Positions 2,757 to 51,916 of a stretch of DNA of 64,000 bases are shown piece by piece; within the stretch, counting starts at the first letter, position 1, and each line of letters begins with the position of its first letter. This stretch comes from Minisyncoccia bacterium. GTDB taxonomy: Bacteria; Patescibacteriota; Minisyncoccia; Phycocordibacterales; CALRBL01. The notes beneath the pieces were generated by a model, which ran no database searches, was not told the origin of the DNA, and saw only the letters and a program-made list of their open reading frames with translations. The translations under genes and the position numbers were made by a program. Location of the stretch: assembly GCA_038230075.1 (NCBI GenBank), contig JBBRNV010000005.1, positions 14,071 to 78,070 on the forward strand, given 5' to 3'.

Positions 2757-3281
2757 TTAAATGCTGTCAGCTAAAAACTGCTTTCCTAAAATGTGCGATT
2801 TCGATGAAGGATTGAAAAGTAGTTCACTTCCTTCTAATAGATAGACGTCTTTGATTCCTCCTTTAATCATAGCATTCCAACAAGATTCGCAACACCACCA
2901 ATGACCCCAATGATAAAGGTCGGCACCTTGGGTATCGAATCCATTCTTTTGTGCATCTACTACTCCTCGAGGCTCAGAGTGGTTGGCATAACTGGCACAC
3001 CCTGGGCAAAGCCAATATTTTGTTCCAGATGCGACCTTAAAGAACTTACGAACACACCATCCTTCTTGATGAAGCTTTCGAAGAGTGGGGTTCTTTAGGG
3101 GGGCTTGGCTGGCTCCTCGACCAATCACCTTACCGTCTTTAACCAACACAACACTTGTTGGTTGCATAGTCTCACTTGAGAGCTTTCCTACCTCTCTCGC
3201 TTCATGCATAAACGGGTTATCAAGCGTCACGTAGATGAACTTTCTTCCTTCTGGTAGATAGGGGTACTTAATTTGTGTCAT
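2757..3281 (-). CDS. dCMP/cytidine deaminase-family zinc enzyme (ComEB/Tad-like)
   Basis: HSE...CESC arrangement (H-x-E then C-x-x-C) characteristic of the CDA fold zinc site; 174 aa; location inside the dTMP-synthesis cluster. Confidence 0.7.
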   Translation of the reverse strand: MTQIKYPYLPEGRKFIYVTLDNPFMHEAREVGKLSSETMQPTSVVLVKDGKVIGRGASQAPLKNPTLRKLHQEGWCVRKFFKVASGTKYWLCPGCASYANHSEPRGVVDAQKNGFDTQGADLYHWGHWWCCESCWNAMIKGGIKDVYLLEGSELLFNPSSKSHILGKQFLADSI

Positions 3282-3317
3282 AGTAAGTAACTTGTTTGCA
3301 TGCTATCACGCGCATAC

Positions 3318-3323
3318 TATAAT
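3318..3323 (+). promoter_or_regulatory. Candidate -10 box (tataat) for thyA-family gene in divergent intergenic region
   Basis: tataat lies 9 nt upstream of the ATG at 3333; the divergent partner gene starts at 3281. Confidence 0.3.
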
Positions 3324-3332
3324 GTTAATAAT

Positions 3333-4169
3333 ATGAATACATTCGACCACATCTATCAGGAGATGCTCAAGAAGATTATGGCAGAAGGTATTCGCGAAAT
3401 GAGCGAAAGAACCGGCCTTGAAACTGCTGCAATTCCTGGGATGACATTTTCATATGATCCAATTAAAGATGGCTTCCCTCTTCTCACGCTTCGAAAAATT
3501 CCTGTGAAAGTTTTTATCGCAGAGCAAGCATGGTTTATTTTAGGATGCAGAAAGCCTGAAGATTTTTTACGAGACTACACAAAAATTTGGGATGTATTCA
3601 CTAATCCAAACGATGTAGTTACTGTTGCGTACGGATACCGATGGCGAAAACATTTCGGACGAGATCAGCTCGCTCTTTTAATTGAACTTCTAGAAAAAGA
3701 ACCGAGCTCTCGACATGGAGTTGTTGTTGCATGGGATCCAGCACAAGACGGTCTTTCACTTCAGAAAAAGAAAAATGTTCCTTGTCCCTATACCTTTACT
3801 GTAAATATTATTGGTGGAAAGTTACATATGCATAATGTGGTTCGATCAAATGATATGGTTTTAGGATTCCCTCACGATGTCGCAGGCTTTTGTCTTCTTC
3901 AATATATTTTGGCTCAACGACTACACGTTGGAGTTGGGATTTACACTCACACCATTTCAAATGCTCATATTTATAGTAATCACTACGAAGGGGCACAAGA
4001 AATGATTAAACGAGAAAATAGTCATAAACCAATCACTCTTACCCTTCCTGAAAAAACATTTGAACGAATTGAGGCTCGAGAGATTCCAGTCATTGAAGAA
4101 ATCATGGCACAAGTTGCAGGTCAATATCAGCCACAAGCAGCCATTCCTAATTTAAAAATAGCCATTTAA
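3333..4169 (+). CDS. thyA: Thymidylate synthase (ThyA) family pyrimidine C5-methylase, with Asn to Asp at the base-specificity position
   Basis: Collinear with ThyA: FPLLTLRK, YGYRWR, RHGVVVAWDP, catalytic PC(P) and HIYSNH. Likely start is the internal M (MNTFDHIYQEML), not the ORF-track start at 3300. Segment RSNDMVLGFPHDVAGF aligns to E. coli RSCDVFLGLPFNIASY (sequence recalled from memory). Confidence 0.85.
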   Translation: MNTFDHIYQEMLKKIMAEGIREMSERTGLETAAIPGMTFSYDPIKDGFPLLTLRKIPVKVFIAEQAWFILGCRKPEDFLRDYTKIWDVFTNPNDVVTVAYGYRWRKHFGRDQLALLIELLEKEPSSRHGVVVAWDPAQDGLSLQKKKNVPCPYTFTVNIIGGKLHMHNVVRSNDMVLGFPHDVAGFCLLQYILAQRLHVGVGIYTHTISNAHIYSNHYEGAQEMIKRENSHKPITLTLPEKTFERIEAREIPVIEEIMAQVAGQYQPQAAIPNLKIAI

Positions 4170-4173
4170 TATC

Positions 4174-4821
4174 ATGTCAATTCTTACCAAGAAAAATTTA
4201 CTTGAACGATTAGCAAGTGGAAATGTCACCTTTAAACCACAACTCGATACATTTCAAATTCAGTCGCACGCAATCGACCTTCGTCTTGGTTTTACATTTC
4301 TTATTCCAAAAATGTGGCAGATAACAAAACATGGTCGTGAGGCTTTGAATATTGATCATTTTGATAAAAATCGACCACCATATTTTGAAACTGTTGAGCT
4401 TGAACAAGGACAACATTTTGATCTTCTTCCGGGAGAATATGTACTTGTATCAACACTCGAATCAATGAAAGTTCCTAATGACTTAATGGCAATTCTTTTC
4501 CCCCGATCTTCAACCAATCGAAAAGGGTTATCTGTTGATCTTACAGGAATTGTTGATTCAGGATATGAAGGGCAACTGGCTATCCCCGTTCGAAACAACA
4601 CAGCGCATCAAACAGTGCGACTTTATCCAGGTGAAAGATTCTGCCAAGTTGTATTTGAAAAACTAGATGAAGAAATTGATGTTGAACACAGTCGCTACCA
4701 TCGAAAAGATATTATCGACGGTTTTGTACGAAATAAAAAAGCGACCCCAGATGATGAAAAAGAAATTGAGCTTTTGTTACAAGGTGATATCAAGGCGCTG
4801 AAAGAACAATTTAAAATCTAG
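4174..4821 (+). CDS. dcd: dCTP deaminase / dUTPase-fold enzyme (Dcd-like)
   Basis: PRSSTNRKGL...GIVDSGYEGQLAIPV matches the Dcd/dUTPase beta-jelly-roll signature; the start lies 4 nt after thyA. Confidence 0.75.
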   Translation: MSILTKKNLLERLASGNVTFKPQLDTFQIQSHAIDLRLGFTFLIPKMWQITKHGREALNIDHFDKNRPPYFETVELEQGQHFDLLPGEYVLVSTLESMKVPNDLMAILFPRSSTNRKGLSVDLTGIVDSGYEGQLAIPVRNNTAHQTVRLYPGERFCQVVFEKLDEEIDVEHSRYHRKDIIDGFVRNKKATPDDEKEIELLLQGDIKALKEQFKI

Positions 4822-4827
4822 TTTCAC

Positions 4828-5316
4828 ATGATCAATCTCATAGCAGCTATTCAAAAAAGTGATCGAGGTCTCGGATATAAAAACGAACTTTTATACAGAG
4901 TATCTGACGACTTAAAACGATTCAAAGAAATGACAACGGGTCACCCAATCATCATGGGACGAAAAACATTTGAATCAATCGGACGGGCACTTCCTAATCG
5001 TACGAACATCGTGATCACTTCACAAAAAATTGATGTTCCCGGAATTATCACTGTTCTATCTGATCAAGAAGCTTTTAATATTGCAAAGAAATCTGAAGGA
5101 TCTAATCAAATATTTATTATAGGAGGTGCACGAGTATATGAGGCATTCATGACAGTTGCCGATCAACTTTTTATAACAATTATTGAAGGAAATAAAACTG
5201 CTGATGTATTTTTTCCTACATTTGAACAAGACTTCAAAGAAATATCACGAGAAAAGCACGTAGACGCAAACACTTCGACTCCTTATTCATACGTTACCTT
5301 AGTTAAGAACTCTTAA
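4828..5316 (+). CDS. folA: Dihydrofolate reductase
   Basis: MINLIAAIQKSDRGLGYKNELLY...RFKEMTTGHPIIMGRKTFESIG; classic DHFR N-terminus and GRKT motif; 162 aa. Confidence 0.9.
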   Translation: MINLIAAIQKSDRGLGYKNELLYRVSDDLKRFKEMTTGHPIIMGRKTFESIGRALPNRTNIVITSQKIDVPGIITVLSDQEAFNIAKKSEGSNQIFIIGGARVYEAFMTVADQLFITIIEGNKTADVFFPTFEQDFKEISREKHVDANTSTPYSYVTLVKNS

Positions 5317-5409
5317 ATCAACAGGAAAGATGTGGTTGAAAAGGACACAAAATTGAGTTAGTCTTGCCGTAGGTTTCGAGCAATTCCGCTCGTATGTACC
5401 CCCATTTCA

Positions 5410-6231
5410 ATGAACGACTACTCTGCAGCAAGAATTCTCGCAGCAACCCAAGAACTTGATGCGGCAGCCCTCGCAGGACCAGCACCAATGACCCGTCAAA
5501 TTCCTCAAGAGCCAAAGATGACTATCTTCGCACAACAAAATGCGTGGACGCTCCTCGACCAAACGGGATCCCTCGTTCTGCATTGGAAAGGTCATCGCGA
5601 AAAAAATCCAAACGTCAGACAAGTCTCGGTCACTGACCACATGATCAGTTCTTCGTTTATTGTCACGCAAGTCATCTTGCAACTACGTACGCTTTTCCAA
5701 GCGAACAAAGTAACACATTACGTCGACTGGTTTCGTTTGATGATGGCTTGGCAAATTCACGACCTGGCCGAAATTATCTTGAAAGGCGACGTGGATTATG
5801 CCCGAAAGAATGTCGAGCGCGACGCGGTAGAGTTTACCGCCTTCGTACCTTGGCTTCGAAAGGCCTGTATTCATGAGACAGTGATCGAACAATTCGAAGA
5901 AGCTTTTCTGCTACAGTTCGCGCTCAAACAGGAACACTTCTCTTCGTTTAACGCTCGGGGACGACAAATCCTCAGTCGACTTAACGAAGAAAGTATCTTG
6001 GAGGCAACGATCTTTTCGGCAGCCGAGGCACTTGAATGCTTCTTCTACGCTCTCGAATGTTTGCGAATCCACCACGTGAAGGGTCCTCTTTACCAAGTAG
6101 CCAAGGATCAACAGCCGAGGCTCGAGGTTTTTTCGAAGACCATCCCCCACTTCGACACCGTGTGGACACCAAAACTTAATGATTGGGCCAAAGAAGTTGC
6201 TGCAATCGGTGTGGCACAACCCCAAACATGA
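5410..6231 (+). CDS. HD-domain phosphohydrolase, YfbR-like 5'-deoxynucleotidase candidate
   Basis: H...HD pair (VTDHMISS; WQIHDLAEIILKGDV, which resembles the YfbR LHDxxEVxTGD motif). The gene is visibly more GC-rich (~50%) than its neighbours. Confidence 0.5.
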   Translation: MNDYSAARILAATQELDAAALAGPAPMTRQIPQEPKMTIFAQQNAWTLLDQTGSLVLHWKGHREKNPNVRQVSVTDHMISSSFIVTQVILQLRTLFQANKVTHYVDWFRLMMAWQIHDLAEIILKGDVDYARKNVERDAVEFTAFVPWLRKACIHETVIEQFEEAFLLQFALKQEHFSSFNARGRQILSRLNEESILEATIFSAAEALECFFYALECLRIHHVKGPLYQVAKDQQPRLEVFSKTIPHFDTVWTPKLNDWAKEVAAIGVAQPQT

Positions 6232-6313
6232 CTGTTAGGATCCAAAAGAAACAAAGGCGTCGTCGCTCTCACCGAGCCTCGGCGTCCTTTCTTTTTTCAA
6301 CCACAAGCGTGAT

Positions 6314-6404
6314 TTAAATAATAAATACAAAAAGAGTTTCTTCAACGTCCTCACCCTTACGGGCTGCGAATGTTTCAGAAACTCTTTTTGTATTTATTAT
6401 TTAA
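6314..6404. repeat. Perfect 28-bp inverted repeat (hairpin) with 35-nt loop overlapping the rplK stop codon
   Basis: ttaaataataaatacaaaaagagtttct at 6314-6341 is the exact reverse complement of 6377-6404. The loop contains a small cccttacggg hairpin. No U-tract on either side. Confidence 0.8.
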
Positions 6405-6822
6405 CCACATCAACACCCATTGATCGACACGTACCTCGAATCATTTGCATTGCAGCTTCAAGAGAGGTTGCATTCATTTCAGCAATCTTCTTTTCTGCAA
6501 TTTCTTTGACCTGAGCTTCAGTGATTTTTCCAATTTTCTTTGCACCAGTTGTACCTGATCCTTTTTCAAGACCAGCTGCTTTCAAAATCATTTGAGAAGC
6601 GGGGGCAGTCTTAAGAATGAAATCAAATGTTCGGTCATCAAATACTGACATAAGTACCGGAACAATTTCTCCCATTCGATCTCGTGTTGCATCGTTAAAC
6701 CGCTTTACGAAATCACCAATGTTAACACCAGCGGGACCAAGCGCAGTACCAACAGGAGGAGCTGGAGTAGCCTTTCCACCTGGAATTTGGAGCTTAATTA
6801 CTTTTGTGACTTTCTTTGCCAT
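6397..6822 (-). CDS. rplK: 50S ribosomal protein L11
   Basis: MAKKVTKVIKLQIPGGKATPAPPVGTALGPAGVNI matches the L11 N-terminus; 141 aa. Confidence 0.97.
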   Translation of the reverse strand: MAKKVTKVIKLQIPGGKATPAPPVGTALGPAGVNIGDFVKRFNDATRDRMGEIVPVLMSVFDDRTFDFILKTAPASQMILKAAGLEKGSGTTGAKKIGKITEAQVKEIAEKKIAEMNATSLEAAMQMIRGTCRSMGVDVVK

Positions 6823-6924: not shown

Positions 6925-7470
6925 CTAGATTTTCTTGATCTGCAAAAAATCAAGTTCAACAGGAGTCTCTCGTCCGAACATTGAAACTAACACTTTCACC
7001 TTTCCTCGATCTGTATCAACTTCACTCACCTTTCCTTCAAGATCTTTGAATGGTCCGTCAGCAATAATGATTGCATCACCTGGAACAAGGTCGATAGTAT
7101 GCTTCACTGTTTCTGAACCCATTCGTCGGAAGAGTTCTTCGACTTCTTTTTTGTCTAATGGAACTGGTGTTACTCCTGATCCAACGAATCCTGTAACACG
7201 AGGAGTATTTCGAACGACATACCATGAGTCGTCAGTTACCACCATGTCTACAAGAATGTATCCGGGATAAATTTTTTCTTCTTCTTCTACTCTCTTCCCT
7301 GCTTTGATTTTAATTTTCTTTTCAGTTGGAACGATAACATTGAAAATTCGATCTTCCATTCCAAGAGATTCGATTCGCTGTTTTAAATTTCGAAGTACAG
7401 CGTTTTCATAGCCGGCATACGTGTGAATGGCGTACCAATTTCGATCTGCAATTTGTTGCTTTTGTGACAT
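6925..7470 (-). CDS. nusG: Transcription termination/antitermination factor NusG
   Basis: NWYAIHTYAGYENAV N-terminal NGN domain and C-terminal KOW (VKVLVSMFGRETPVELDF); conserved position between secE and rplK. Confidence 0.95.
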   Translation of the reverse strand: MSQKQQIADRNWYAIHTYAGYENAVLRNLKQRIESLGMEDRIFNVIVPTEKKIKIKAGKRVEEEEKIYPGYILVDMVVTDDSWYVVRNTPRVTGFVGSGVTPVPLDKKEVEELFRRMGSETVKHTIDLVPGDAIIIADGPFKDLEGKVSEVDTDRGKVKVLVSMFGRETPVELDFLQIKKI

Positions 7471-7776: not shown

Positions 7777-10700
7777 CTAATTGGTAGGAACTGGAGTCTC
7801 AACAGGAGTAGTTTCCGGAGCTGGTTCTGTTGGCGCAGGTGGAGTTATTACAGGATCAGTTGGAAGTATCGAAGGAGTTGATGTTCCAGAATCTGTTGGA
7901 GTTACAGGATCTGAAGATGTTGCAGTAGATGTTCCTGTGCCTGTATCTCCACTTCCACCGCCACCATTACCTCCAGTTGGAGGAGTTGATGTTCCTGTTG
8001 TTAACCCATGACTTTCACAAGATCCTATTGTTGCAACAATAGCACCATCACTTACGGTCATACAGGTAAGATTTCCTGTTACTTTATCTCGCACGGTAAT
8101 TCCCTCTTCAACTGTTGCGTGTTTTGCAGTGAAGTTCTCAACTATCACATCTCGAAGTGCCCCCATTCCATTAACAACTGATGCCCCGAATGATTGAATA
8201 ATTCCAAAGACAGAGGTTGAGCCAGAACCAAGAGCTAGTGAACTTGTTCCTGACATATTATTTGAGAGCACAAATGAAAGATCGCTCGATGATGCCATGA
8301 ACTGATTCAACTTTTCATTGAGTGCTTGAATACCAACAAGAGCAACTCCGACAGGGTCAACTTGTGAAAGGTGTTTTGGATCATTATTTAAACCAAAGAA
8401 GTCATAAAACTGTTCAGCAATTGGGCCAATGTGTGTAGTACTTGCGTCTTGTGATTTATAATTCCATTTACTAATATCGAGTTCTGAAATTTTCAAGAGA
8501 ATATTTTGCTTATCTACAGGTGTGAAGTTTTCCTTAAGTGATCGTGAAGAACTAAAGTTTCCAAGACCTGTCGAGTCAACATATGCGAGCAATGTTCCAT
8601 CATCTGCTCTCCACTCAGAGAGATTGGCGCTTTGTCCTGTTGAACCGGTGATTGTTTGAGCAACAATATCATCTGAGATTTGAATATTGAGACGACTATC
8701 TGGTGTTGTAGTTCCGATTCCCAAATTTCCCGTCGCGCCGATTAAGCGCATTGATTCAGTATATGTACTTCCATCTCCTGTTGAGACATTTCCGAAACTG
8801 ATATATCCATTATCTGGTGAGAATTGTCTAAGTTCAAAAGGTTGGATTCCAAAACCATATCTACTATTTCCACCATCATCATACAAAAGAAGTTTTTGTG
8901 CATCGGTTCCAGATCCAAGTGAAAGGAGGGCTTGTGGTGTGCCAAAAATACCAAGACCTAAGTAACCATTCTCTGAAAGTATTGCCCCATTCCCAGTACC
9001 AGTTCCAGAATCTCGGCTAAAATAAAGATCTCCCGTTGTGCCGTTATTTCGAATACTCCATTGTCCAGCCTCTGCTCCACCTTGGTTGTTAACAGCAAGA
9101 CCAATATTTGAACCACTATCATTTCCAATAATTGACATGAAGTTCGTACCATTCAAATATGTTGTAATTTGACCTTCGACAAAAAGTCTATCTGAAGGTG
9201 TTGTTGTTCCAATTCCTACATTAACAGCATGTCCTCCTGTTCCTCCAAGAATCAGGGAGTTTGATTGCTGTACTTGAGCAAAATAACCGATTGCTGTTGC
9301 ATTAGACAACGAAGAAGAAGAAAAGATCGCACCATCTTGCTGACCAGCATATGAACCAATAAAGGTGTTTCCAACACTGTCTGTGACTGATCCTCCAGCA
9401 AGAACTCCAATTGAAACGTTTTCATTTCCTAAAATATTTGCTTCACCAGCTCTAAAACCTATCGCGCTGTTGTATGAACCTGAAGTGTTCTCGTGTCCAG
9501 ATCGCGAACCAACAAAGCTGTTTCCAAACCCATCAATATTTTGATTTCCCGCTTCAATACCAAAGAAGTTGTTTTCACTTCCTGTTGTGTTATTTATACC
9601 CGCTGCGAAACTAAAGAAGTTGTTATTTGACCCAGTTATGTTATGTGTTCCAGCTGCCGTTCCAAAAAAGTTGTTTCCCCCTCCTCCTGTGTTGTCATGA
9701 CCCGCCGCATTTCCAAAAAAGTTGTTATCGGTTCCTGTTGCATTATTTGCTCCTGCGGTGAACCCAAAGAAGTTGTTAAAATATCCAGAAGTATTACTTG
9801 TTCCTGCATTAAATCCAAAGAAGTTGTTTGAGTACCCGTCTATATTGCTTGATCCGGCACCTGGCCCGAAAAAGTTGTTTGATGAACCATCAACGTTACT
9901 TATACCAGCAGAGTCACCAAAGAAGTTGTTATTAGATCCGATTGTATTCGATCTTCCGGAATTCAAACCAAGAAAGTTATTGGATGAACCATTCAAGTTA
10001 TTTAATCCAGAGTTGAATCCGAAGAAGTTGTTATGCGATCCGTCGATATTATTCTGACCTGTTCCTGACCCCAAGAAGTTGTTTGACACACCATTGATAT
10101 TAGTAACACCAGCATTAAATCCGAAGAAGTTGTTATCTGTTCCATCCTGTGTATCTCGCCCCGCATTTTCACCTATGAAATTATTTGATCCTCCTGTTGT
10201 AATATTTAGTCCAGCTTGATAACCAACAAGAAAATTACTTGTTCCACTCATTGTTGTATTACCAGAATCTGCAAGTAATATACTACTTCCGACACGATCT
10301 AACGCTCGAAAATTTCGAATATAATAAGGCTGACTAGTGTTAACAATTCCATCGACTTCAAGTTTTTGACCGATGGTTGTTGTGCCGATTGAAACATTTC
10401 CTGCATTAAAATAAATATCACTTCCGCTGTTTACCCACTGTGATGATGAAGTTCCACCAGCAAATAACACGCCGTTTTGGTAGAGGTTTCCAGTGAAGTT
10501 GATGTCGCCTTGAACTGCGAGTGTGTGACTTGGTGTTGTTGTGCCGATTCCAAATTTTCCTCCACCAATAGGCGCTCCACTCTGTGTATCACTATTGTAG
10601 ATACCGGTAGCATATAAAACATTTCCAATGTTCAACTCTTGTTCTGCGTTATTTATAACTCCTCGTCCCAACGAAATTGAATTTGAAAAACCTCCTGTTC

Positions 10701-13700
10701 CTGCCCACTGACCAATCGCAATTGATGTTCCGTCTGATGAGTTATTAACCGTGTCGGCTGATCCTGCGTTTAATCCAATAAATATAGAGTTGTTTGCTTG
10801 CGCTGAAGAATCTCCAGCAGTATCTCCTAGAAAAAGCGAGTAAGAAGCACTTGTGGCATTATGTCCTGCGCCAATTCCAAGAAACGTAGATCGAAATACG
10901 TTCGTTGCACCCTCTCCTGTACCAAAACCAATAAAGTTAGAGAGTCCTGCGTCAGTTGCGCCCATTCCTGCTCCTGCGCCAATAAATATTGAACTACTAG
11001 CACGTGTTGCCAATTCTCCCGCAGCGCCTCCGATGAAAATCGAATTCACAGCGTCAGAAGCATGAAATCCGGAACTAGCTCCAATAAAAATAGCTTGGCT
11101 TGCATTTGTTGCTTCGTTTCCAGAACCATCCCCAAGAAAAAGCGAATAGTTTGCGTTGGCGACGTTTGTTCCAGCAGAGGCTCCGATTGCAAGACTATTT
11201 CCATTGATAGAATGGATTGGAAGCCCACTCAGATTAAGAGTGCTTGTCGCGTCTATCGTTCCAAGTGTCACATCTCCTTTGAAAAAGGCATTACCATTGT
11301 CTACTGTTAATTTGTAACCTGGAGTCGTCGTTCCAACTCCCACATTCCCTAAATTATAATAAATATCAGAACCTGTAGTTGTCCACTGTGATGTTCCTGT
11401 TCCTGAAGTGAAGAGGTTTCCATTTTGATAGAGGTTTCCAGTGAAGTTGATGTCGCCACCAACTGCTAGTGTGTATCCAGGGGTTGAAGTAGCAATACCA
11501 ATTCTTCCACCTGTTTCAGGTGCACCACTTGGGGTAATGTCTGCTCGAATGTTATTGGCAAACAGTACTCCTCCCAAGTTTAGTTCTCGAGATTGATTAT
11601 TGGCAGTTCCTTCTCCAATTGCAATACTGTCACTGAATCCTCCAGTTGATGTCCATGCTCCAATTAATATAGAAGATGACGCGAGATTTGTTGTGTTATC
11701 TACCGTGTCGGAGTATCCAGCATTACTACCAAGAAAGATTGAATTCGCAGCGTTGGTTGCTGCGGTTCCGACATTTGCTCCTACGAAAAACGAATCGTGT
11801 GCGTTTGTCGCATCGAGTCCGGCAGAGTATCCAAAGAAATGAGAATTTCTTGCCTGATTTGCATTTCTTCCTGCCTCCTGTCCAAAAAAGTTTGAGCCGT
11901 ATGCAGTGGTTGCATCACGCCCCGCATTGATTCCGAAGAAATTGGAATCATTTGCGTTGAAAGCTCCTCTTCCTGCGTTTGATCCAAAGAAATTGGAATT
12001 ATTTGCGTCATTTGCGTCACGCCCAGCAGACAAACCAAGAAAGTTTGATTCATTAAGATTTGCATCATTTAATCCTGCAAATGAGCCAATAAGTATATTA
12101 TTACTTCCATCTGTTAATGACGTTCCCCCACCCGCAGCAAGAAAGTTATTAGTACCTGTAATTGAAGTGTTTCCCGATACTCCAAGAAACAAATTTCTAG
12201 TCGTGGATGAAAATGCTAACGCTTGAAGATTTTCTATTTTTAATATTCCACCATTTGAAATATTGATGTCACCAACAACACTAAGTTTTGATGCGGGGGT
12301 TGTTGTTCCAACTCCCACATTCCCTAAATTATAATAAATATCAGAACCTGTAGTTGTCCACTGTGATGTTCCTGTTCCTGAAGTGAAGAGGTTTCCATTT
12401 TGATAGAGGTTTCCAGTGAAGTTGATGTTACCTTGAACTGCGAGTGTGTGACTTGGTGTTGTTGTGCCGATTCCGAGGTTTCCATTTGAAAGCATTTGGA
12501 TATATGCAGTATTTGAAAGACCGAGTTTAAAAATATTATCCTGAACAGTTGTTAAGCCATCACCTATCAGATATGAGTTTGTTGCTGTTGCAGCGTTAGC
12601 TTTTCCTAAAGCAAAGCTTCCGTTCGGAACATTGTTGTTGTATCCAAAGGCATATGTAGTAGAACCTGTTACCATATTCAGGAAACCAAAAGCTCCAGAA
12701 TAAGATCCGTTATTTATGGTGTTACTTCCACCAAAAATCGCAGACTCTGTACTAGTACTTATTCCATTTTCACTACCATATACACTTGCGTGATCAAATG
12801 AGTTTATAACCTTGTTTCCTATTCCAAAAGCAACACCTCGAATACCAGAAACTGTATTTGAAGTTCCGTAGGCAAGATTCTCACCTGGAGTAATAGCATC
12901 AACAGGAAAGATTCCATTTGAAATTGTATTTGAAGCTCCGTAGGCTTGGTTATTTCTTCCTTCAATTGTGTTGAATTTACCAAAAGCAACAACACCCCCT
13001 CCGGCTCCTGACGTTACATTCGATCGACCAATTATTATCGCGACACCTGAGTCTACAATGTTTGATGATCCAAAAATATTTGCACCTGATCCGGATCCTG
13101 AATTATCATTTCCCACAACTGATCCACCACTTGAATTCACAACAGAGATATCTCCTGCAACTGTAAGTGCCAAATTTGGAGTTGTTGTTCCTATTCCAAC
13201 ATTTCCTAAATTGTAATAAATATTTGAACCATTATTTAACCACTGAGATGATGTCGTTACTCCTCCAAATAAAATTCCGTTTTGGTAGAGGTTTCCAGTG
13301 AAGTTAATGTCGCCATCTACTCCTAATTTATAACTAGAAGTTGTTGTTCCAACCCCAAGGTTTCCTGTACTACTCGCAAGAGAAAGATAAGAACCGCTCG
13401 ATAAACCAATTAAGAAGGAGTCATTAACATTGTTAATGAGATTGTTTCCGAGAGTGTAAGAACCTGTACTGTTCACCGAGTTTGCAAGCCCAGCAACAAA
13501 ACTATTTGTTCCTGTTGCTCTGTTATTGCTTCCAAAAACTGAGACTTCGGAACCCGTAATAACGTTTGAGAAACCAAACGCATTTGATTCAAATGTTGTT
13601 CCTGACAAAATATTAAACACGCCGAAAGCTGAAGATGTATTTGATGTTCCAGAAATTCCGTTTTGAATTCCAACTGCAACCGAACGATCATCAGCAACAA

Positions 13701-14607
13701 CACTGTTTCCATACCCAAGCGCAGTTGCTCCTCCTGAACTGTTACTTTGAACAGCATTACTTCGTCCAATTGCCGTAGACCTTCCACCGAGTGATGAGTT
13801 ATTGAAACCAACAGCAACAGGTTTAAATCCTGATCCTTGATCGTCAGCGGTGTTGGTAAATCCAAGAGCAACACCATTAATTGCACTGACTCCTGACCCA
13901 ACCGCCACTCCTGATGAACTGTTAATAACATTAATATTTCCAACAATGTTTAGTCGTTCAACTACTGATGTTGTTCCAAACCCCACATTTCCATTAAGAA
14001 AATTAAGATTACTTCCAATATTTAATATCCCACCCGACCCATCGAGGTCTCCAATATGAACCGACCAATCTCCTGTGTTTAAATCAGTTCCTGTTTGATC
14101 AAAAAAACGAGCACCTGAAAAATCTCGAAGAATCAATGTTGAGGTTGATACACTATAAGGAGTTACGTCCAATGCGGCATGTGGAGAAGCAGTTCCTATA
14201 CCAAGTCGTGTAGTTACCGAATCAAATACAAAGTTAGCATTCGCACCGAACACTCCCCCATTGTTAAATTGAATCTGAGTATTTGATCCAGCAGGAGAAG
14301 TAGAACCACTTGAGCTTGCGGTACCGAGGGTTACCCAATTCGAGTTTGTAATTCCTCCTTGTAACTGATAATTAGTTGTATTTGCAACAACATACACACT
14401 CAGGCCTTGAAATCGTTGACCTGATGGAATGGCATCTCGTGCAGTGAGGTCTTGAACTACTGTTCGTGCATCGAGCGGCAATTGAGAATTTAACTGAAAG
14501 TTCGATCCAAGTTGAATACTTGCGAGCGCGTAACTTGCAACGAATACAATGGCAACAATAATACCAGTGAGAGATGATTTAAATATTTTTTTAAAAAATC
14601 TTTTCAT
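7777..14607 (-). CDS. Giant (2276 aa) secreted/cell-surface protein with tail-fibre-like repeat modules and an endosialidase-type C-terminal intramolecular chaperone (peptidase S74-like) domain
   Basis: N-terminal signal/TM (MKRFFKKIFKSSLTGIIVAIVFVASYALAS). Many LGIGTTTP...GDINFTGNLYQNG modules and (S/G)NNFFG repeats. A block ~175 aa from the C-terminus (SRSLKENFTPVDKQNILLKISELDISKWNYKSQDASTTHIGPIAEQFYDFFG...GVALVGIQALNEKLNQ) matches the phage tail-spike autoproteolytic chaperone domain. Thr/Pro/Gly-rich tail follows. Confidence 0.85.
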   Translation of the reverse strand: MKRFFKKIFKSSLTGIIVAIVFVASYALASIQLGSNFQLNSQLPLDARTVVQDLTARDAIPSGQRFQGLSVYVVANTTNYQLQGGITNSNWVTLGTASSSGSTSPAGSNTQIQFNNGGVFGANANFVFDSVTTRLGIGTASPHAALDVTPYSVSTSTLILRDFSGARFFDQTGTDLNTGDWSVHIGDLDGSGGILNIGSNLNFLNGNVGFGTTSVVERLNIVGNINVINSSSGVAVGSGVSAINGVALGFTNTADDQGSGFKPVAVGFNNSSLGGRSTAIGRSNAVQSNSSGGATALGYGNSVVADDRSVAVGIQNGISGTSNTSSAFGVFNILSGTTFESNAFGFSNVITGSEVSVFGSNNRATGTNSFVAGLANSVNSTGSYTLGNNLINNVNDSFLIGLSSGSYLSLASSTGNLGVGTTTSSYKLGVDGDINFTGNLYQNGILFGGVTTSSQWLNNGSNIYYNLGNVGIGTTTPNLALTVAGDISVVNSSGGSVVGNDNSGSGSGANIFGSSNIVDSGVAIIIGRSNVTSGAGGGVVAFGKFNTIEGRNNQAYGASNTISNGIFPVDAITPGENLAYGTSNTVSGIRGVAFGIGNKVINSFDHASVYGSENGISTSTESAIFGGSNTINNGSYSGAFGFLNMVTGSTTYAFGYNNNVPNGSFALGKANAATATNSYLIGDGLTTVQDNIFKLGLSNTAYIQMLSNGNLGIGTTTPSHTLAVQGNINFTGNLYQNGNLFTSGTGTSQWTTTGSDIYYNLGNVGVGTTTPASKLSVVGDINISNGGILKIENLQALAFSSTTRNLFLGVSGNTSITGTNNFLAAGGGTSLTDGSNNILIGSFAGLNDANLNESNFLGLSAGRDANDANNSNFFGSNAGRGAFNANDSNFFGINAGRDATTAYGSNFFGQEAGRNANQARNSHFFGYSAGLDATNAHDSFFVGANVGTAATNAANSIFLGSNAGYSDTVDNTTNLASSSILIGAWTSTGGFSDSIAIGEGTANNQSRELNLGGVLFANNIRADITPSGAPETGGRIGIATSTPGYTLAVGGDINFTGNLYQNGNLFTSGTGTSQWTTTGSDIYYNLGNVGVGTTTPGYKLTVDNGNAFFKGDVTLGTIDATSTLNLSGLPIHSINGNSLAIGASAGTNVANANYSLFLGDGSGNEATNASQAIFIGASSGFHASDAVNSIFIGGAAGELATRASSSIFIGAGAGMGATDAGLSNFIGFGTGEGATNVFRSTFLGIGAGHNATSASYSLFLGDTAGDSSAQANNSIFIGLNAGSADTVNNSSDGTSIAIGQWAGTGGFSNSISLGRGVINNAEQELNIGNVLYATGIYNSDTQSGAPIGGGKFGIGTTTPSHTLAVQGDINFTGNLYQNGVLFAGGTSSSQWVNSGSDIYFNAGNVSIGTTTIGQKLEVDGIVNTSQPYYIRNFRALDRVGSSILLADSGNTTMSGTSNFLVGYQAGLNITTGGSNNFIGENAGRDTQDGTDNNFFGFNAGVTNINGVSNNFLGSGTGQNNIDGSHNNFFGFNSGLNNLNGSSNNFLGLNSGRSNTIGSNNNFFGDSAGISNVDGSSNNFFGPGAGSSNIDGYSNNFFGFNAGTSNTSGYFNNFFGFTAGANNATGTDNNFFGNAAGHDNTGGGGNNFFGTAAGTHNITGSNNNFFSFAAGINNTTGSENNFFGIEAGNQNIDGFGNSFVGSRSGHENTSGSYNSAIGFRAGEANILGNENVSIGVLAGGSVTDSVGNTFIGSYAGQQDGAIFSSSSLSNATAIGYFAQVQQSNSLILGGTGGHAVNVGIGTTTPSDRLFVEGQITTYLNGTNFMSIIGNDSGSNIGLAVNNQGGAEAGQWSIRNNGTTGDLYFSRDSGTGTGNGAILSENGYLGLGIFGTPQALLSLGSGTDAQKLLLYDDGGNSRYGFGIQPFELRQFSPDNGYISFGNVSTGDGSTYTESMRLIGATGNLGIGTTTPDSRLNIQISDDIVAQTITGSTGQSANLSEWRADDGTLLAYVDSTGLGNFSSSRSLKENFTPVDKQNILLKISELDISKWNYKSQDASTTHIGPIAEQFYDFFGLNNDPKHLSQVDPVGVALVGIQALNEKLNQFMASSSDLSFVLSNNMSGTSSLALGSGSTSVFGIIQSFGASVVNGMGALRDVIVENFTAKHATVEEGITVRDKVTGNLTCMTVSDGAIVATIGSCESHGLTTGTSTPPTGGNGGGGSGDTGTGTSTATSSDPVTPTDSGTSTPSILPTDPVITPPAPTEPAPETTPVETPVPTN

Positions 14608-20703: not shown

Positions 20704-20772
20704 TAAGACATCATAACAAAATCACCCCCATTTAAAAGGGGTGATTTTGTTATGATGTCTTCTGTTTCGATC

Positions 20773-32316: not shown

Positions 32317-32335
32317 ACACATTGAATAGATAAAC

Positions 32336-32368
32336 AAAAACCTCGCACATGATGCGAGGTTTTTGTTT
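32336..32368. terminator. Bidirectional intrinsic terminator between convergent genes
   Basis: cctcgca-catga-tgcgagg hairpin flanked by A-run and T-run. Confidence 0.6.
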
Positions 32369-33780: not shown

Positions 33781-34371
33781 TCAATCCATGATGGTTGCGA
33801 TACCAAATTCTTCGCACTGAGGGGCCGTAAGCTTAAGCACCCCTGAGATAGAGAACTGATGAAGCAGTTGTTTGCCGATTGAAAGATCTTTAACTGCGGC
33901 TCTCGTTTTGGTAATCATTTCGACAACTGCTCGATTGACTGAGTTCGGAAGATTCACAGCTCCCGCTGCAGAAACGTCGATATCAGCCAAAGAGATATTG
34001 AGATTACCAAGATGGAAGGCCAACTCTCCTGTCCGAACTATTTCACGAGACGAACAAGATAGGGCAATCATTGCGGCGATGGAAGAAGCGTTGTAGATGA
34101 CCGCATGAGTCTTAAAGGAGGCTCGTTTGATGAACTCACAGAGCTTGAGGCCCTTTTGTGAGTCTCCTCCTTCACTCATAATGACGATGGTGATACCTTC
34201 TTCGTCGGAAAAACCCTCCTTACTCGCGATGATTTTCAACTGCTCACCAAATGCATCCAATCTCTTTCGAGATAGATGCCCTGACAAAAGGACAACTTTC
34301 ATTAACATTCCTCCTAAAAGGTTTGAGGTTTGACCGACACTTGCTATAATACCTTTATTACTATTAAACAA
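33781..34371 (-). CDS. ClpP/crotonase-fold serine peptidase-like protein
   Basis: IVIMSEGGDSQKGLKLCEFIKRASFKTHAVIYNASSIAAMIAL parallels ClpP [44 protein letters not shown]. Confidence 0.5.
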   Translation of the reverse strand: MFNSNKGIIASVGQTSNLLGGMLMKVVLLSGHLSRKRLDAFGEQLKIIASKEGFSDEEGITIVIMSEGGDSQKGLKLCEFIKRASFKTHAVIYNASSIAAMIALSCSSREIVRTGELAFHLGNLNISLADIDVSAAGAVNLPNSVNRAVVEMITKTRAAVKDLSIGKQLLHQFSISGVLKLTAPQCEEFGIATIMD

Positions 34372-38643: not shown

Positions 38644-38733
38644 GGAGGAGTGGCAGAGTGGTCTATCGCACTTGTCTTGAAAACAAGAGTCCCTTCACGG
38701 GGACCGTGAGTTCGAATCTCACCTCCTCCGCCA
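38644..38733 (+). tRNA. tRNA-Ser (anticodon UGA), CCA encoded; insertion target of the adjacent element
   Basis: GGAGGAG...anticodon loop CTTGAAA...long variable arm GTCCC-TTCA-CGGGGAC...GTGAGTTCGAATCTCAC-CTCCTCC-GCCA. Confidence 0.85.
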
Positions 38734-40230
38734 AGAATCACATTTAGAAAAATCAAGGTTGGAAGCCTCGGCGCAAAGCGCCTCGGCATGGTATTTTTCC
38801 GCAATTTTGAAGGCATTTTTGAAATCGCACGCCAGCGTGCGGTCGGCAATGCGGAAGTTCGAACCAATCTTTTTGAGAAAATCCCGTCCCGCGACGGGAT
38901 TTTCTTGTTGAGCGTATTTTTCGGCTTGGTTGGCCTCTTTTAGAAAGGCAATGGCAAGTTCGAACCGATTATTGCTCTTTCGCTCAAAAGACTGGATTTT
39001 CTCCTGAAAATCTTTTTTAGCGAGAATGAGCTTGTGCTTTTTAGTGGCATATTCCGTTTGCAATAAATTGCCTTCAAGTTGTAAATCGAGCAAACGATCA
39101 AGTTTTGTCTCAACCTGCACAAGCTCATCTCTCGTCTTTTGAGCAAAAGAGCTTTCCGCTTGGGCAATATCTATTTTTTCTTTTTCAAAATATGCGATTG
39201 AAACATTGACCCAAGCGGAAGACAAAGAAACTTTTTTGATTTCCTCTTTTATTTGAGAAGTGATGGCGTCCTCTCTCGCGTATCTTTGCGAGCAAGGATT
39301 TTTCCGTTTGGTACAGCGGAGATAGTTGTGTCCCTTTTGTGTTTCAGTGGTAATGAAGCAACCACATTCTCCGCAACGGAAAAATCCTCTATACACATAA
39401 GGTTTCAACTTTGGCGATTTCGGTTTGCTCTTATTCGCCATCACTTCTTGAACGGAATCAAAAAGTTTCTTTGTGATAATCGGTTCATGCTTTCCGTCAT
39501 ACAATTCGCCGTTATATTCAATCATTCCAAAATAGATTTTATTTTTCAGCATGTACTGATAATTTGAGACGGAAAGCATTTTACCTTTCTTGCCAACCAA
39601 GCCCAAGGAATTGATAATCTTTCGGATTTGAGCGAGGGGGTATTCGCCAGTAGCGTACATTTCAAAAGCCCGCTTGATATACTTTGCCTTTTCTTTATCA
39701 ACAGCGATACAGCGGGCATTCTTGTCGTTCACATAGCCAAGCGGCGCCCAAGCGGGCCATATTCCATTTCTCAATTTCTGGCGAATACCCCTCTTTATAT
39801 TTTCCGAAAGATTATCCACATAGTATTTTGATTGCCCAAAAGCAATGGACAACATAAATTTCCCTTGCGGTGTGCAGTCAAACCAAAAAGTGGGAAATTT
39901 TAGCGTGGTAATTTTGCCAGTATCTACGAGATAGATAATCCGTCCGCCGTCTATAGAATTGCGAGCAAGGCGGTCGGGGTGCCACGCTAAAATTCCTTCC
40001 GCTTCGTTTTTCTCTATGCCCGCCACCATATCATTAAAAATTTCTCGCCCCGGCTCTTTGGCGGTTTTGCTTTCCACAAATTCACGGACGATCTGCAAAT
40101 TTTCTTTTCGCGCGTATTCTTTTAGCTCGAAAATTTGCGCTTCAATACTCAAAACCTGCCTTTCGGGTTCGTCCGTGGATTTGCGGGCATAGAGGAAAAA
40201 CTTTTTGGTTTGTAAATTTATGTTGTCCAT
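38719..40230 (-). CDS. Large serine recombinase (resolvase catalytic domain + recombinase domain + zinc ribbon + coiled coil)
   Basis: YARKSTDEPERQVLSIEAQ (catalytic Ser motif), recombinase-domain motifs, CGECGC...C zinc ribbon; 503 aa; ~44% GC versus ~37% for the host. Confidence 0.9.
   Translation of the reverse strand: MDNINLQTKKFFLYARKSTDEPERQVLSIEAQIFELKEYARKENLQIVREFVESKTAKEPGREIFNDMVAGIEKNEAEGILAWHPDRLARNSIDGGRIIYLVDTGKITTLKFPTFWFDCTPQGKFMLSIAFGQSKYYVDNLSENIKRGIRQKLRNGIWPAWAPLGYVNDKNARCIAVDKEKAKYIKRAFEMYATGEYPLAQIRKIINSLGLVGKKGKMLSVSNYQYMLKNKIYFGMIEYNGELYDGKHEPIITKKLFDSVQEVMANKSKPKSPKLKPYVYRGFFRCGECGCFITTETQKGHNYLRCTKRKNPCSQRYAREDAITSQIKEEIKKVSLSSAWVNVSIAYFEKEKIDIAQAESSFAQKTRDELVQVETKLDRLLDLQLEGNLLQTEYATKKHKLILAKKDFQEKIQSFERKSNNRFELAIAFLKEANQAEKYAQQENPVAGRDFLKKIGSNFRIADRTLACDFKNAFKIAEKYHAEALCAEASNLDFSKCDSWRRR
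38728..38861. repeat. Inverted repeat X, copy 1 (~134 bp; includes the last 6 nt of tRNA-Ser and the last ~45 codons of the recombinase)
   Basis: ccgccaagaatcacatttagaaaaatcaaggttggaagcctcggcgcaaagcgcctcggc...gcggaagttcg is the reverse complement of 40345-40478, with 1 mismatch. Weaker similarity continues ~60 bp further. Confidence 0.85.
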
Positions 40231-40344
40231 ATTGTTTTGAAATTAGTTTTTGGGCAATCAGGGAAAAATACGCTCAACCTTTCGCCGAAAGCGAAAGAAA
40301 AAAGATTGGTTTGCAAAATTCCATTTTGCCAGAACTTCGCTCTG

Positions 40345-40478
40345 CGAACTTCCGCATTGCCGACCGTACGCTGGCGTGCGATTTCAAAAATGCCTTCAAA
40401 ATTGCGGAAAAATACCATGCCGAGGCGCTTTGCGCCGAGGCTTCCAACCTTGATTTTTCTAAATGTGATTCTTGGCGG
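40345..40478. repeat. Inverted repeat X, copy 2 (immediately upstream of the recombinase start, abutting Y copy 1)
   Basis: Reverse complement of 38728-38861. Carries a duplicate of the recombinase C-terminal coding segment (the + ORF 40311..40535 reads FRIADRTLACDFKNAFKIAEKYHAEALCAEASNLDFSKCDSW). Confidence 0.85.
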
Positions 40479-40643
40479 TGTTTCTTGATTGATGTTCGAA
40501 CATTTTTTGAAGAAAATCCGAATTCCGAATTTTAAAATCCAGTTGCTCGGGCGGGCAAAAAGGAAGGGGGTTGGGGGGAAGGAATTTTTGCCCGCCCTCG
40601 CTTTCCAATCCCAATTTTTTTCCGCCGCCGTCGCCGAATTTCG
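40475..40643. repeat. Inverted repeat Y, copy 1 (~167 bp)
   Basis: gcggtgtttcttgattgatgttcgaacattttttgaag...gggcgggcaaaaaggaagggggttgggggg...ccgaatttcg is the reverse complement of 43967-44132, with 2-3 mismatches. Contains the palindrome gttcgaac. Confidence 0.85.
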
Positions 40644-40727
40644 TATTTCGCTTTGCGAAATGCGCCGCCTAGAATTTTGGTTGCCAAATTTCAATGTTTT
40701 TGTTATCATTATATTAAGCTAGTTGAT

Positions 40728-44132: not shown

Positions 44133-44136
44133 ACAT

Positions 44137-44173
44137 AACAATAAAGACCACCTCATTGGTGGTCTTTATTGTT
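44137..44173. repeat. Perfect 16-bp stem hairpin (aacaataaagaccacc-tcatt-ggtggtctttattgtt) flanking the island; no U-tract
   Basis: Exact palindrome immediately outside IR Y'. Could be the pre-insertion tRNA-Ser downstream structure, a terminator of the convergent regulator gene, or part of the attachment site. Confidence 0.6.
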
Positions 44174-44239
44174 ATGCTACATAAGATAGAGAGATTCGGG
44201 TCGAACCTCCTTTCGAAAGGAATCTCACATTTACCACCT

Positions 44240-46354: not shown

Positions 46355-46425
46355 GTCAAAAAGCAAGACAAACAAAAAGACCGGGCAAGAAGCTCGGTCT
46401 TTTTGTTATCTATTGAGAACTTCTA

Positions 46426-49885: not shown

Positions 49886-49915
49886 TCGATTCCTAACGAG
49901 GGGAAAGCAAAAATA

Positions 49916-49955
49916 AAAAGCATCTAGTGGGAATGAATTCACTAGATGCTTTTTA
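49916..49955. terminator. Bidirectional intrinsic terminator (aagcatctagtg-loop-cactagatgctt + T-run)
   Basis: 12-bp perfect stem flanked by A-run and T-run, between the tRNA (+) and rpsT (-). Confidence 0.65.
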
Positions 49956-49963
49956 TTTTGTTT

Positions 49964-51860: not shown

Positions 51861-51916
51861 AAAACACCGAGTTGGAGTAACCCCACTCGATGCTTTTTAT
51901 TTTTATAGTCTATTTA

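Follow-up and report, generated by a model that had tools for sequence, protein, structure and literature searches.

What is a GC-rich gene for an HD-domain protein doing at the end of a thymidylate operon, and does the long perfect hairpin directly behind it belong to the same event? Patescibacteria (CPR) have a minimal nucleotide metabolism and depend on their hosts. Here, we analysed a window of 64,000 nucleotides from a Minisyncoccia bacterium, in which the plus-strand operon thyA (3300-4169), dcd (4174-4821) and folA (4828-5316), spanning 3300..5316, converges with rplK on the minus strand (6397-6822). An initial annotation had described a foreign HD gene between them and had taken the hairpin for an insertion scar, an att site, a MITE-like element or a regulatory RNA structure. 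Our analysis suggests two independent features instead, an acquired gene for a YfbR-like HD phosphohydrolase (ORF273) and a native bidirectional terminator of rplK, a reading to which we assign a probability of about 72%.

The three operon genes were identified by Pfam, and the products of thyA and dcd pass the NCBIfam cut-offs of TIGR03284 and TIGR02274, respectively. The convergent rplK codes for ribosomal protein L11 (Pfam Ribosomal_L11_N and Ribosomal_L11) and is the final gene of a secE-nusG-rplK unit. ORF273 (5410..6231, plus strand, 273 aa) was found where it had been annotated, appended to the 3' end of the thyA-dcd-folA operon, with a reading frame intact across all 273 codons; M37, encoded at 5518, is a possible alternative start, at which the majority of the family begins. 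Folding of the region from 5310 to 5420, which includes the interval between folA and ORF273, yielded no terminator-like structure (z = 0.6), and since no terminator follows folA, ORF273 is probably co-transcribed with thyA-dcd-folA. Transcription of the operon would then end at an intrinsic terminator of ORF273 itself (6244..6296, plus strand), composed of an A-tract, a GC-rich stem (6256-6286) and CTTTCTTTTTT, which folds with −22.3 kcal/mol (z = −3.9) and stands 18 nt from the rplK hairpin. This GC-rich hairpin with its T-run does not appear in the initial annotation.

To which family does ORF273 belong? On its own, the protein gave no significant match in Pfam, NCBIfam or PADLOC. Its score against the YfbR-like model PF12917 (E = 0.065, 13.4 bits) lies below the cut-off of 25.9, so that the curated threshold of PF12917/NF003009 is not reached, and ORF273 itself does not match the HD_3 model (PF13023). 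A word-indexed homology search recovered only the query, and an exhaustive phmmer search was required to find homologues, of which there are 176 at E ≤ 1e-3; clustering at 50% identity divides the family into at least 176 clusters. Among 42 members compared with the models at E ≤ 1, 21 matched HD_3, 13 HD and 11 YfbR-like, with best values of 5.4e-9 for HD_3 and 4.4e-5 for YfbR-like. A precomputed PF13023 annotation is carried by six of 33 members, and most are listed without any precomputed Pfam domain. The family profile matched the HD proteins 2cqz, 1xx7 and 3mzo in the PDB. An AF2 model of ORF273 reached a pLDDT of 89.9 (single-sequence AlphaFold was uninformative, pLDDT 39), and its top Foldseek matches were the YfbR structures 2pau, 2paq and 2par (TM 0.72). 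An hhalign comparison with Escherichia coli YfbR (E = 8e-5) aligned the RW, H, HD..E and D elements with R18/W19, H33, H68/D69/E72 and D77. With its H...HD...D motif and all-helical core, ORF273 belongs to the superfamily of HD metal-dependent phosphohydrolases, and the earlier description as a YfbR-like HD domain is borne out by profile, Foldseek and hhalign evidence at the level of the YfbR/HD_3 structural clade. Its family, with a typical length of about 235 aa, is an undescribed and apparently Patescibacteria-wide group of metal-dependent phosphohydrolases within the HD_3/YfbR/HDDC2/OxsA clade, and judging from the genomic contexts, it appears to be restricted to Patescibacteria-type genomes. 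The exact ORF273 sequence was not found in contig records, and a metagenome scan with a five-sequence alignment gave only three loci.

The motif WQIHDLAEIILKGDV, which the initial annotation had likened to that of dNMP nucleotidases, is present at residues 114-128. The active-site region (5638..5790, plus strand) contains H77 (5638-5640) and H117-D118-x-x-E121...D127 (5758-5790), preceded by H58-W59 (5581-5586, plus strand) as the equivalent of the RW dipeptide, and E206 is encoded at 6025-6027 (plus strand). In the hhalign alignment, H77, H117, D118, E121, D127 and W59 correspond to H33, H68, D69, E72, D77 and W19 of YfbR. All metal-binding and catalytic columns (H77, H117, D118, E121, D127 and E206, invariant in A1 and A2) are thus retained; the fourth metal ligand is a Glu rather than an Asp, and the correspondence of E206 to YfbR D137 is only approximate, being one column off. 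The equivalent of YfbR R18, an Arg in at least 90% of the family, is H58 in ORF273. Since substitution of R18 renders YfbR inactive (residue roles according to a review, PMC8177086), the R58H exchange suggests that ORF273 may be impaired or altered in its specificity. Its sequence departs from the family at more conserved columns than that of any other member (7 of 31 and 9 of 33 columns, compared to means of 1.7 and 1.2), with R58H, Q72V, Y142F, P181N and Y210C among the deviations, and it sits on the longest branch of the tree. Elsewhere, family members occur in unrelated gene contexts and also in tandem paralogue arrays. All of this would suit a decaying or neofunctionalised passenger, either inactive or re-purposed, for example for nucleotide binding or for a different substrate, and uninvolved in thymidylate metabolism. 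We regard this as unlikely, given the intact frame, the complete set of metal-binding and catalytic residues, the gene's own terminator and its operon continuity with folA; moreover, His58 could still form a hydrogen bond to phosphate or sugar.

If ORF273 is a functional phosphohydrolase, what does it act on? The closest described comparison is YfbR, the 5'-deoxynucleotidase of E. coli (PF12917; 2PAQ, 2PAR, 2PAU), which serves as dCMP phosphohydrolase in the deoxycytidine route to thymidylate (PMC8475336), a role also given by the RefSeq product name; enzymes of the YfbR-like type are characterised by hydrolysing 2'-deoxynucleoside 5'-monophosphates with Co2+ or Mn2+. ORF273 resembles YfbR in the aligned H...HD..E...D residues and the Trp of the RW dipeptide, and YfbR has a physiological tie to thymidylate synthesis. 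It differs in that identity is only about 15-20%, with a score under the family threshold, in being about 40-70 residues longer with an additional C-terminal helical region, in the His at the position of R18, in the probable Glu as last metal ligand, and in that its substrate is a prediction. A second group for comparison are the small HD_3 phosphohydrolases (PF13023), such as PH0347 (2CQZ), human HDDC2 (4DMB), OxsA (5TK6), Lin2634 (3MZO) and phage DatZ (6ZPA). Half of the ORF273 family matches PF13023, and ORF273 shows a weak PHROG match to dATP triphosphohydrolase (DatZ-type dATPase), whereas the family as such is separate from these enzymes in sequence. HD_3 enzymes act on mono-, di- or triphosphorylated states, hence the substrate of ORF273 does not follow from the fold. 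Most likely, the enzyme dephosphorylates a 2'-deoxynucleotide; our best guess is a dNMP 5'-nucleotidase, with dNTP hydrolysis of the DatZ/OxsA type as another possibility, and the activity would trim or rebalance deoxypyrimidine pools. For the suggestion that it clears a non-canonical dNMP we found no evidence, and ThyA passes the equivalog model for thymidylate synthase, TIGR03284. As family members occur in unrelated contexts elsewhere, the link to thymidylate is not a general one. A family of this size that is sometimes part of a thymidylate operon is nevertheless a reasonable target for studies of deoxynucleotide balance and salvage in Patescibacteria. We also considered a nucleotide-depletion defence gene, a candidate that received no support from PADLOC.

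Is the gene foreign? The earlier estimate of a GC-rich gene (approximately 50% versus 37%) proved close, with 48.9% GC for ORF273 compared to 38.5% for the window. Its GC3 of 0.507 ranks first among the 60 ORFs of the window (mean 0.298, sd 0.064; z = 3.3), which makes it the strongest compositional outlier, while GC1 and GC2 are ordinary. The remaining window genes with high GC3 include a serine recombinase. The GC-rich segment extends over 5343..6305, with 45-58% GC per 60-nt window and a sharp fall to 33% at around 6300, and is presumed to be the acquired unit, made up of ORF273 with its terminator and a 5' leader. Two copies of a perfect 12-nt inverted repeat bracket this segment: the left copy (5331..5342, plus strand, TGTGGTTGAAAA) starts 15 nt past the folA stop and is also complementary in 11 of 12 positions to the 3' end of rplK (6400-6411), and the right copy (6294..6305, plus strand, TTTTCAACCACA) overlaps with the terminator of ORF273 at its T-run. 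Of 3000 shuffled sequences, 0.1% produced a pair that brackets the segment in this way, and 23% produced a pair at any position. The composition suggests that this copy of ORF273 was laterally transferred or allelically replaced, with a relative of higher GC content as the probable donor. In viral contigs we found neither a relative of the ORF273 protein nor a copy of the hairpin arm and therefore see no sign of a phage vector.

The gene order in relatives bears on the same question. Between rplK and the thymidylate cluster that converges on it, relatives have either an empty slot or various nucleotide-metabolism genes, and among 61 relatives the content of the slot includes a canonical HD_3 gene (L045), a dUTPase, an NTPase_I-T and 2OG oxygenases. 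A 272-aa ORF in this slot of L098 was considered as a homologue of ORF273 and rejected, as it codes for a 2OG-Fe(II) oxygenase. The HD gene is missing from two relatives that share this gene order, L100 (folA/rplK spacer of 57 nt; rplK 78% identical) and L051 (spacer of 258 nt), which supports its description as an add-on to the thymidylate cluster. Across the clade, the junction is a variable slot for accessory genes. Members of the ORF273 family occupy the slot in L050 and L020, in native composition. Compositionally, the copy in the window is foreign, as had been annotated; its homologues in the same slot speak against an origin that is purely foreign.

These homologues raise the possibility that the HD gene is ancestral at the rplK/thymidylate junction, was inherited vertically and lost in most lineages, and owes its high GC not to a recent transfer but to, for example, codon or amino-acid constraints or fast evolution. 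Homologues occur in the same position and orientation in L050 and L020 and inside the same interval in L006, and ORF273 shares an MN-x-S N-terminal extension with them. In addition, the relatives are very distant (FolD 40-47% identical), and an identity of 28-35% between the HD proteins would be compatible with orthology; a database search for closer relatives via DHFR gave a best identity of 60% and no close relative. We nonetheless consider vertical inheritance somewhat improbable. The protein composition does not explain a GC3 of 0.51 versus 0.30 at ordinary GC1 and GC2, the compositional edges are sharp, a separate GC-rich terminator stands beside the native one, and the homologues of the relatives show native composition. 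Non-syntenic members also give ORF273 better scores (94-103 bits) than do those of L050, L020 and L006 (45-61 bits), and ORF273 falls outside the clade of the latter in a poorly resolved neighbour-joining tree; this tree is too saturated to separate orthology from transfer, with the best sister grouping in 14 of 60 bootstraps.

We thus favour acquisition of this copy. One could go further and propose that the family represents a new, Patescibacteria-specific type of deoxynucleotide phosphohydrolase that moves as a cassette of about 960 bp bounded by the 12-bp repeat (5331-5342/6294-6305), that it is repeatedly taken up at the folA/rplK junction, where it would tune deoxypyrimidine pools or the exchange of nucleosides with the host, and that the R58H copy has a shifted specificity, e.g. 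for another sugar or phosphorylation state. In this full form, the proposal is a long shot.

Does the hairpin belong to the acquired unit? The inverted repeat is exactly as annotated, with two perfect 28-bp arms (6314-6341 and 6377-6404, overall 6314..6404) that no shuffled sequence matched. The right arm had been said to contain the end of rplK; the stop codon (6397-6399) does lie within it, and the overlap comprises the stop, the codon before it and another 2 nt. The 35 nt between the arms, described as a structured loop, are indeed structured, but mostly as a further imperfect stem that reaches 6356/6362, resulting in 43-nt arms with 86% complementarity and a loop of 5 nt. The fold is very stable on both strands (−50.5 kcal/mol on the minus and −44.5 kcal/mol on the plus strand, z of about −11 to −12). 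It had been argued that a U-tract is missing, which does not hold. On either strand, UUUUUGUAUUUAUUAUUU comes after the inner stem GAGUUUCU...AGAAACUC and pairs with the upstream A-tract, giving the layout AAAUAAUAAAUACAAAAA-stem-UUUUUGUAUUUAUUAUUU with the A-tract and T-tract inside the arms. The palindrome would be so long and perfect because the flanking A-tract pairs with the T-tract. A simple terminator scanner flagged neither this hairpin nor that of ORF273, owing to its loop-size limit. A stem-loop with a U-rich tract on both strands next to convergent stops is what defines an intrinsic bidirectional terminator in sequence, and all of these elements are present here.

The same type of palindrome is found at all spaced convergent junctions of the window (6 of 6). 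The others are perfect or near-perfect over 16-24 bp and flanked by A/T-tracts, except for one of 26 bp with 85% complementarity, so that the arms, previously called rare for terminators, represent a common terminator class of this genome. Downstream of rplK, 39 of 72 relatives carry perfect arms of at least 12 bp and six of at least 20 bp, and in eight relatives the hairpin overlaps the rplK stop. The folA/rplK spacer of L100, 57 nt in length, contains one such hairpin, and L051 has a 28-bp hairpin with similar arm sequence over the rplK stop and no HD gene. From the T-tract, the palindromes at convergent junctions and the rplK hairpins of relatives together, we infer that the hairpin at the rplK stop is a native Rho-independent terminator acting in both directions, which would end transcription of rplK and, ancestrally, of folA, and which would be older than the HD gene and independent of it. 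Like other bidirectional terminators of this type, it has an A-tract upstream and a T-tract downstream on both strands, sits right after convergent stop codons and recurs, as seen at the window junctions, throughout the genome; it is unlike typical examples in that its A/T tracts extend the stem to 28 perfect bp (43 bp imperfect), that the stem overlaps the rplK stop and that the second terminator, of the HD gene, lies so near.

A scar, att site or MITE-like element tied to the arrival of the HD gene had seemed attractive, as arms of such length and perfection are unusual in general, the hairpin borders on the GC-rich segment, and a direct repeat of 9-10 nt, T(C/T)AACCACA, flanks it at 6297-6305 and 6401-6409. 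This repeat, however, is separated from the left arm by a gap of 8 nt, and the copy on the right belongs to the coding sequence of rplK. The hairpin is AT-rich like the host genome and unlike the insert, its arm is single-copy in the window, 97 loci and the viral contigs, which speaks against a repeated element, and the similar 28-bp version abutting the rplK stop of L051 shows that it is not tied to the HD gene. Dispersed copies, presence only with the cargo and an abutting target-site duplication, by which a MITE, IS remnant or att site would be recognised, were not found for the hairpin. The initial annotation had itself named in advance the observation that would speak against its reading, namely that the hairpin is a common terminator type of this organism, and this is the case. 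We therefore consider an origin by insertion extremely improbable. In our reading, palindromes of great length and perfect pairing at the ends of genes in these AT-rich genomes are ordinary bidirectional terminators, and recognising them as such should prevent their misinterpretation as scars of mobile elements. Neither this point nor the HD family overturns present understanding.

Finally, the native terminator could in addition be a structured RNA that serves in RNase III processing or in stabilising the 3' end of the rplK mRNA, or that forms a barrier to convergent transcription from the thymidylate operon, a role that would be compatible with termination and not exclusive of it. The stability of the duplex (up to 43 bp, −50 kcal/mol) and the overlap with the rplK stop in the eight relatives fit this idea, as do the arms of the window and of L051, which differ in sequence and are both perfectly complementary and hence show compensatory differences. 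We judge a specific role of this kind very unlikely, since the hairpin matched no Rfam family (only sub-threshold miRNA-precursor models, which reflect generic long hairpins), its loop sequences are not conserved, and the same architecture at unrelated junctions points towards a generic rather than an rplK-specific function.

ORF273, the HD gene at 5410-6231 (+; 273 aa), is a divergent new representative of a known enzyme kind, from an undescribed sequence family that is separate from YfbR. Taken alone, the protein gave no match in Pfam, NCBIfam or PADLOC, and a word-indexed homology search returned only ORF273 itself. Employing an exhaustive phmmer search with ORF273 as query, we recovered 176 cluster representatives at E ≤ 1e-3, mostly 220-260 aa long and 25-36% identical to the query. 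Invariant or nearly so in the alignment are H77, H117, D118, E121, D127, K133, D138, E141, an AFLLQF block, E198, F202, E206 and an R58-W59 dipeptide (ORF273 numbering). HD_3 was matched by 21, HD by 13 and YfbR-like by 11 of 42 family members, and the family profile matched the PDB HD proteins 2cqz, 1xx7 and 3mzo. The AlphaFold model of ORF273, with 33 family sequences as input, is all-helical and confident (pLDDT 89.9), and YfbR structures rank at the top in Foldseek (target-normalised TM 0.72). An hhalign comparison with E. coli YfbR (E 8e-5) equates the RW dipeptide with R18/W19, H77 with H33, H117-D118 with H68-D69, E121 with E72 and D127 with D77. In YfbR, H33, H68, D69 and D137 are the metal ligands, W19 is a steric bar to ribonucleotides, R18 and D77 touch the deoxyribose, and substitution at any of these residues inactivates the enzyme (superfamily review, PMC8177086). 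The ORF and HD motif described in the initial annotation are both present in the sequence, and, judged by Foldseek rank and hhalign residue mapping, its YfbR-like assignment was right for fold and active site. Compared to YfbR, however, the family has an additional C-terminal helical region, and the HD clade around ORF273 includes mono-, di- and triphosphatases, which leaves several kinds of substrate possible. In some genomes, two or three divergent paralogues of the family lie in tandem (L093:6959-9355, L091:6154-8482).

Within its family, ORF273 departs most often from the conserved columns (at 7 of 31 and 9 of 33; means of the other members 1.7 and 1.2) and forms the longest branch of a saturated, unresolved neighbour-joining tree. 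The deviations include R58 to H, at the position equivalent to YfbR R18; metal-binding and catalytic columns are all intact. Either relaxed constraint or a changed specificity would describe this copy. Since most members begin near ORF273 residue 37, position 5518 is a possible alternative start, and the syntenic homologues of two relatives (L050 and L020) have an N-terminal extension starting MN-x-S, as in ORF273.

The source genome is a member of the Paceibacteria group of the Patescibacteria (CPR), with a NusG 76-85% identical to that of MAGs carrying the labels Paceibacterota, Taylorbacteria, Zambryskibacteria and Nomurabacteria. On the local map, tmk (703-1395, -), SHMT (1408-2676, -) and dCMP deaminase (2757-3281, -) are followed by thyA (3300-4169, +), dcd (4174-4821, +), folA (4828-5316, +), ORF273, the convergent rplK (6397-6822, -), nusG (6925-7470, -) and a probable secE. 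We found no terminator-like fold between folA and ORF273 (fold z = 0.6), so that the HD gene is probably co-transcribed with thyA-dcd-folA. In E. coli, YfbR serves as the dCMP phosphohydrolase on the path from deoxycytidine to thymidylate (PMC8475336), a role with which the RefSeq product name agrees. On this analogy, ORF273 would most likely be a metal-dependent deoxynucleotide phosphohydrolase whose substrates lie in the pyrimidine deoxynucleotide pool that dcd, dCMP deaminase, thyA and tmk supply. For the clearing of a non-canonical dNMP, proposed initially, we found no evidence; ThyA passes the thymidylate synthase equivalog TIGR03284. Adjoining secE, a 2276-aa ORF (7777-14607) with a C-terminal Peptidase_S74 (endosialidase chaperone) domain probably encodes a giant surface or fibre protein.

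In 61 of the 76 relatives with rplK, a gene of the thymidylate cluster lies within 5.8 kb 3' of rplK, mostly in convergent orientation, indicating that the clade inherited this juxtaposition from its ancestor. What separates the two, here called the slot, is highly variable: ten loci hold no gene there (≤316 nt), and in L100, with rplK 78% identical and the same thyA-dcd-folA order, the folA/rplK spacer measures 57 nt. Elsewhere the slot holds one to nine ORFs, including DHFR-like and F420-ligase-like proteins, a canonical HD_3/YfbR-like gene (L045:11081-11734; PF13023, 3.7e-23), a dUTPase (L002:11094-11519), an ITPase-type NTPase (NTPase_I-T; L073:11340-11879), a 2OG-Fe(II) oxygenase (L098:6559-7377) and an oxygenase with a deoxyribosyltransferase-like gene (L099:2361-3751). 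That another HD_3 gene, a dUTPase and an ITPase-type NTPase have independently come to lie in this slot in relatives is a second argument for a deoxynucleotide role. Among relatives, both ThyA and DCD fall into two types that diverge deeply, 60-71% versus 22-32% identical to the window proteins (3300-4821 compared with L004-L100), which makes the thymidylate cluster mosaic across the clade. FolD-SIMPL-secE-nusG-rplK synteny is kept across the order; rplA does not lie 3' of rplK in the window or in most relatives (loci L001-L080).

The HD gene had been described as GC-rich and foreign. Its composition was confirmed: at 48.9% GC and GC3 0.507 (z = 3.3), ORF273 is the top outlier among the 60 longest non-overlapping ORFs of the window (mean GC3 0.298, sd 0.064), and the GC-rich tract runs from ~5345 to an abrupt end at ~6300. 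A second high-GC3 cluster (0.44-0.48 versus a mean of 0.30; 33781-34371, 38719-40230 and 40218-40709), probably a mobile element that has integrated, contains a large serine recombinase with Resolvase, Recombinase and Zn_ribbon_recom matches. As the only other strongly GC3-enriched window genes include this recombinase, high GC3 is indeed a mark of imported DNA in this genome. The ORF273 family occupies the slot in only three of 80 loci, between rplK and folA (L050), between rplK and dcd (L020) or deeper within the interval (L006), each with a composition native to its host; outside the slot, members occur in unrelated contexts, at times as tandem paralogues. The closest relatives by DHFR, L098, L099 and L100, are only 57-60% identical to the window's DHFR; of these, L100 has the gene-free spacer, and the other two hold oxygenase genes in the slot. 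That ORF273 is an old resident gene, inherited vertically, is the weaker explanation and in our view unlikely; in our preferred reading, this copy probably came laterally, as a new gene or as a replacement, from a relative of higher GC and entered an accessory slot prone to recombination. The GC-rich segment is flanked almost exactly by a perfect inverted repeat of 12 nt, TGTGGTTGAAAA (5331-5342) and TTTTCAACCACA (6294-6305). Perfect 12-mer pairs arose anywhere in the 1.7-kb region in 23% of dinucleotide shuffles, and with one arm per flanking spacer in 0.1% of 3000 (a post-hoc test); the left copy, in addition, is 11/12 complementary to the 3' end of rplK (6400-6411). The repeat may mark where a transferred cassette begins and ends, or it may be coincidental.

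The exact 28-bp inverted repeat 6314-6341/6377-6404, whose right arm spans the last codon and stop codon of rplK, is present as initially annotated, and it appeared in no shuffle. Its supposed loop is mostly further imperfect stem, giving 43-nt arms (86% complementary) and a 5-nt loop, and the reported lack of a U-tract did not hold, as the inner stem is followed on either strand by UUUUUGUAUUUAUUAUUU, pairing with the upstream A-tract. Pairing of these long A and T tracts accounts for the unusual length. The secE-nusG-rplK unit ends in this predicted terminator, facing the thymidylate cluster. A second hairpin, overlooked initially (6244-6296; GC-rich stem, then CTTTCTTTTTT), is the HD gene's own predicted terminator.

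Rather than an insertion scar, att site, MITE-like element or unusual RNA structure, the rplK hairpin proved ordinary for this organism. Every convergent window junction with a spacer of at least 60 nt carries a palindrome of A-tract, GC-containing core and T-tract (32332-32368, 16 bp; 44134-44176, 19 bp; 46371-46407, 16 bp; 49910-49959, 20 bp; 51850-51907, 26 bp at 85%), which suggests a genome-wide style of bidirectional terminator; another lies 3' of a co-directional gene (20705-20761, 24 bp), and fold z-scores range from -4 to -11. Across 72 relatives, the longest perfect arm 3' of rplK measures 12 bp at the median, at least 16 bp in 20 and at least 20 bp in six; in eight, the stem overlaps the rplK stop codon. 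L051 has a 28-bp perfect arm in the order rplK, hairpin, folA-dcd-thyA, without an HD gene; its hairpin starts TAAATAATAAAATAAAAAAAGTG as against TAAATAATAAATACAAAAAGAG in the window, each being perfectly self-complementary despite the differences. L100 likewise has one such hairpin within its short folA/rplK spacer. The element is AT-rich, as is the host genome, matches no Rfam family and, contrary to a repeated element, is single-copy across the window, 97 loci and viral contigs. From this shared design, its occurrence 3' of rplK in relatives, composition and copy number, we infer that the hairpin is the native bidirectional terminator of rplK, formerly also of folA. The HD cassette would have inserted on its folA side, bringing along or evolving its own terminator, which would explain the two terminators 18 nt apart in the window; L050 and L020 have one shared terminator instead.
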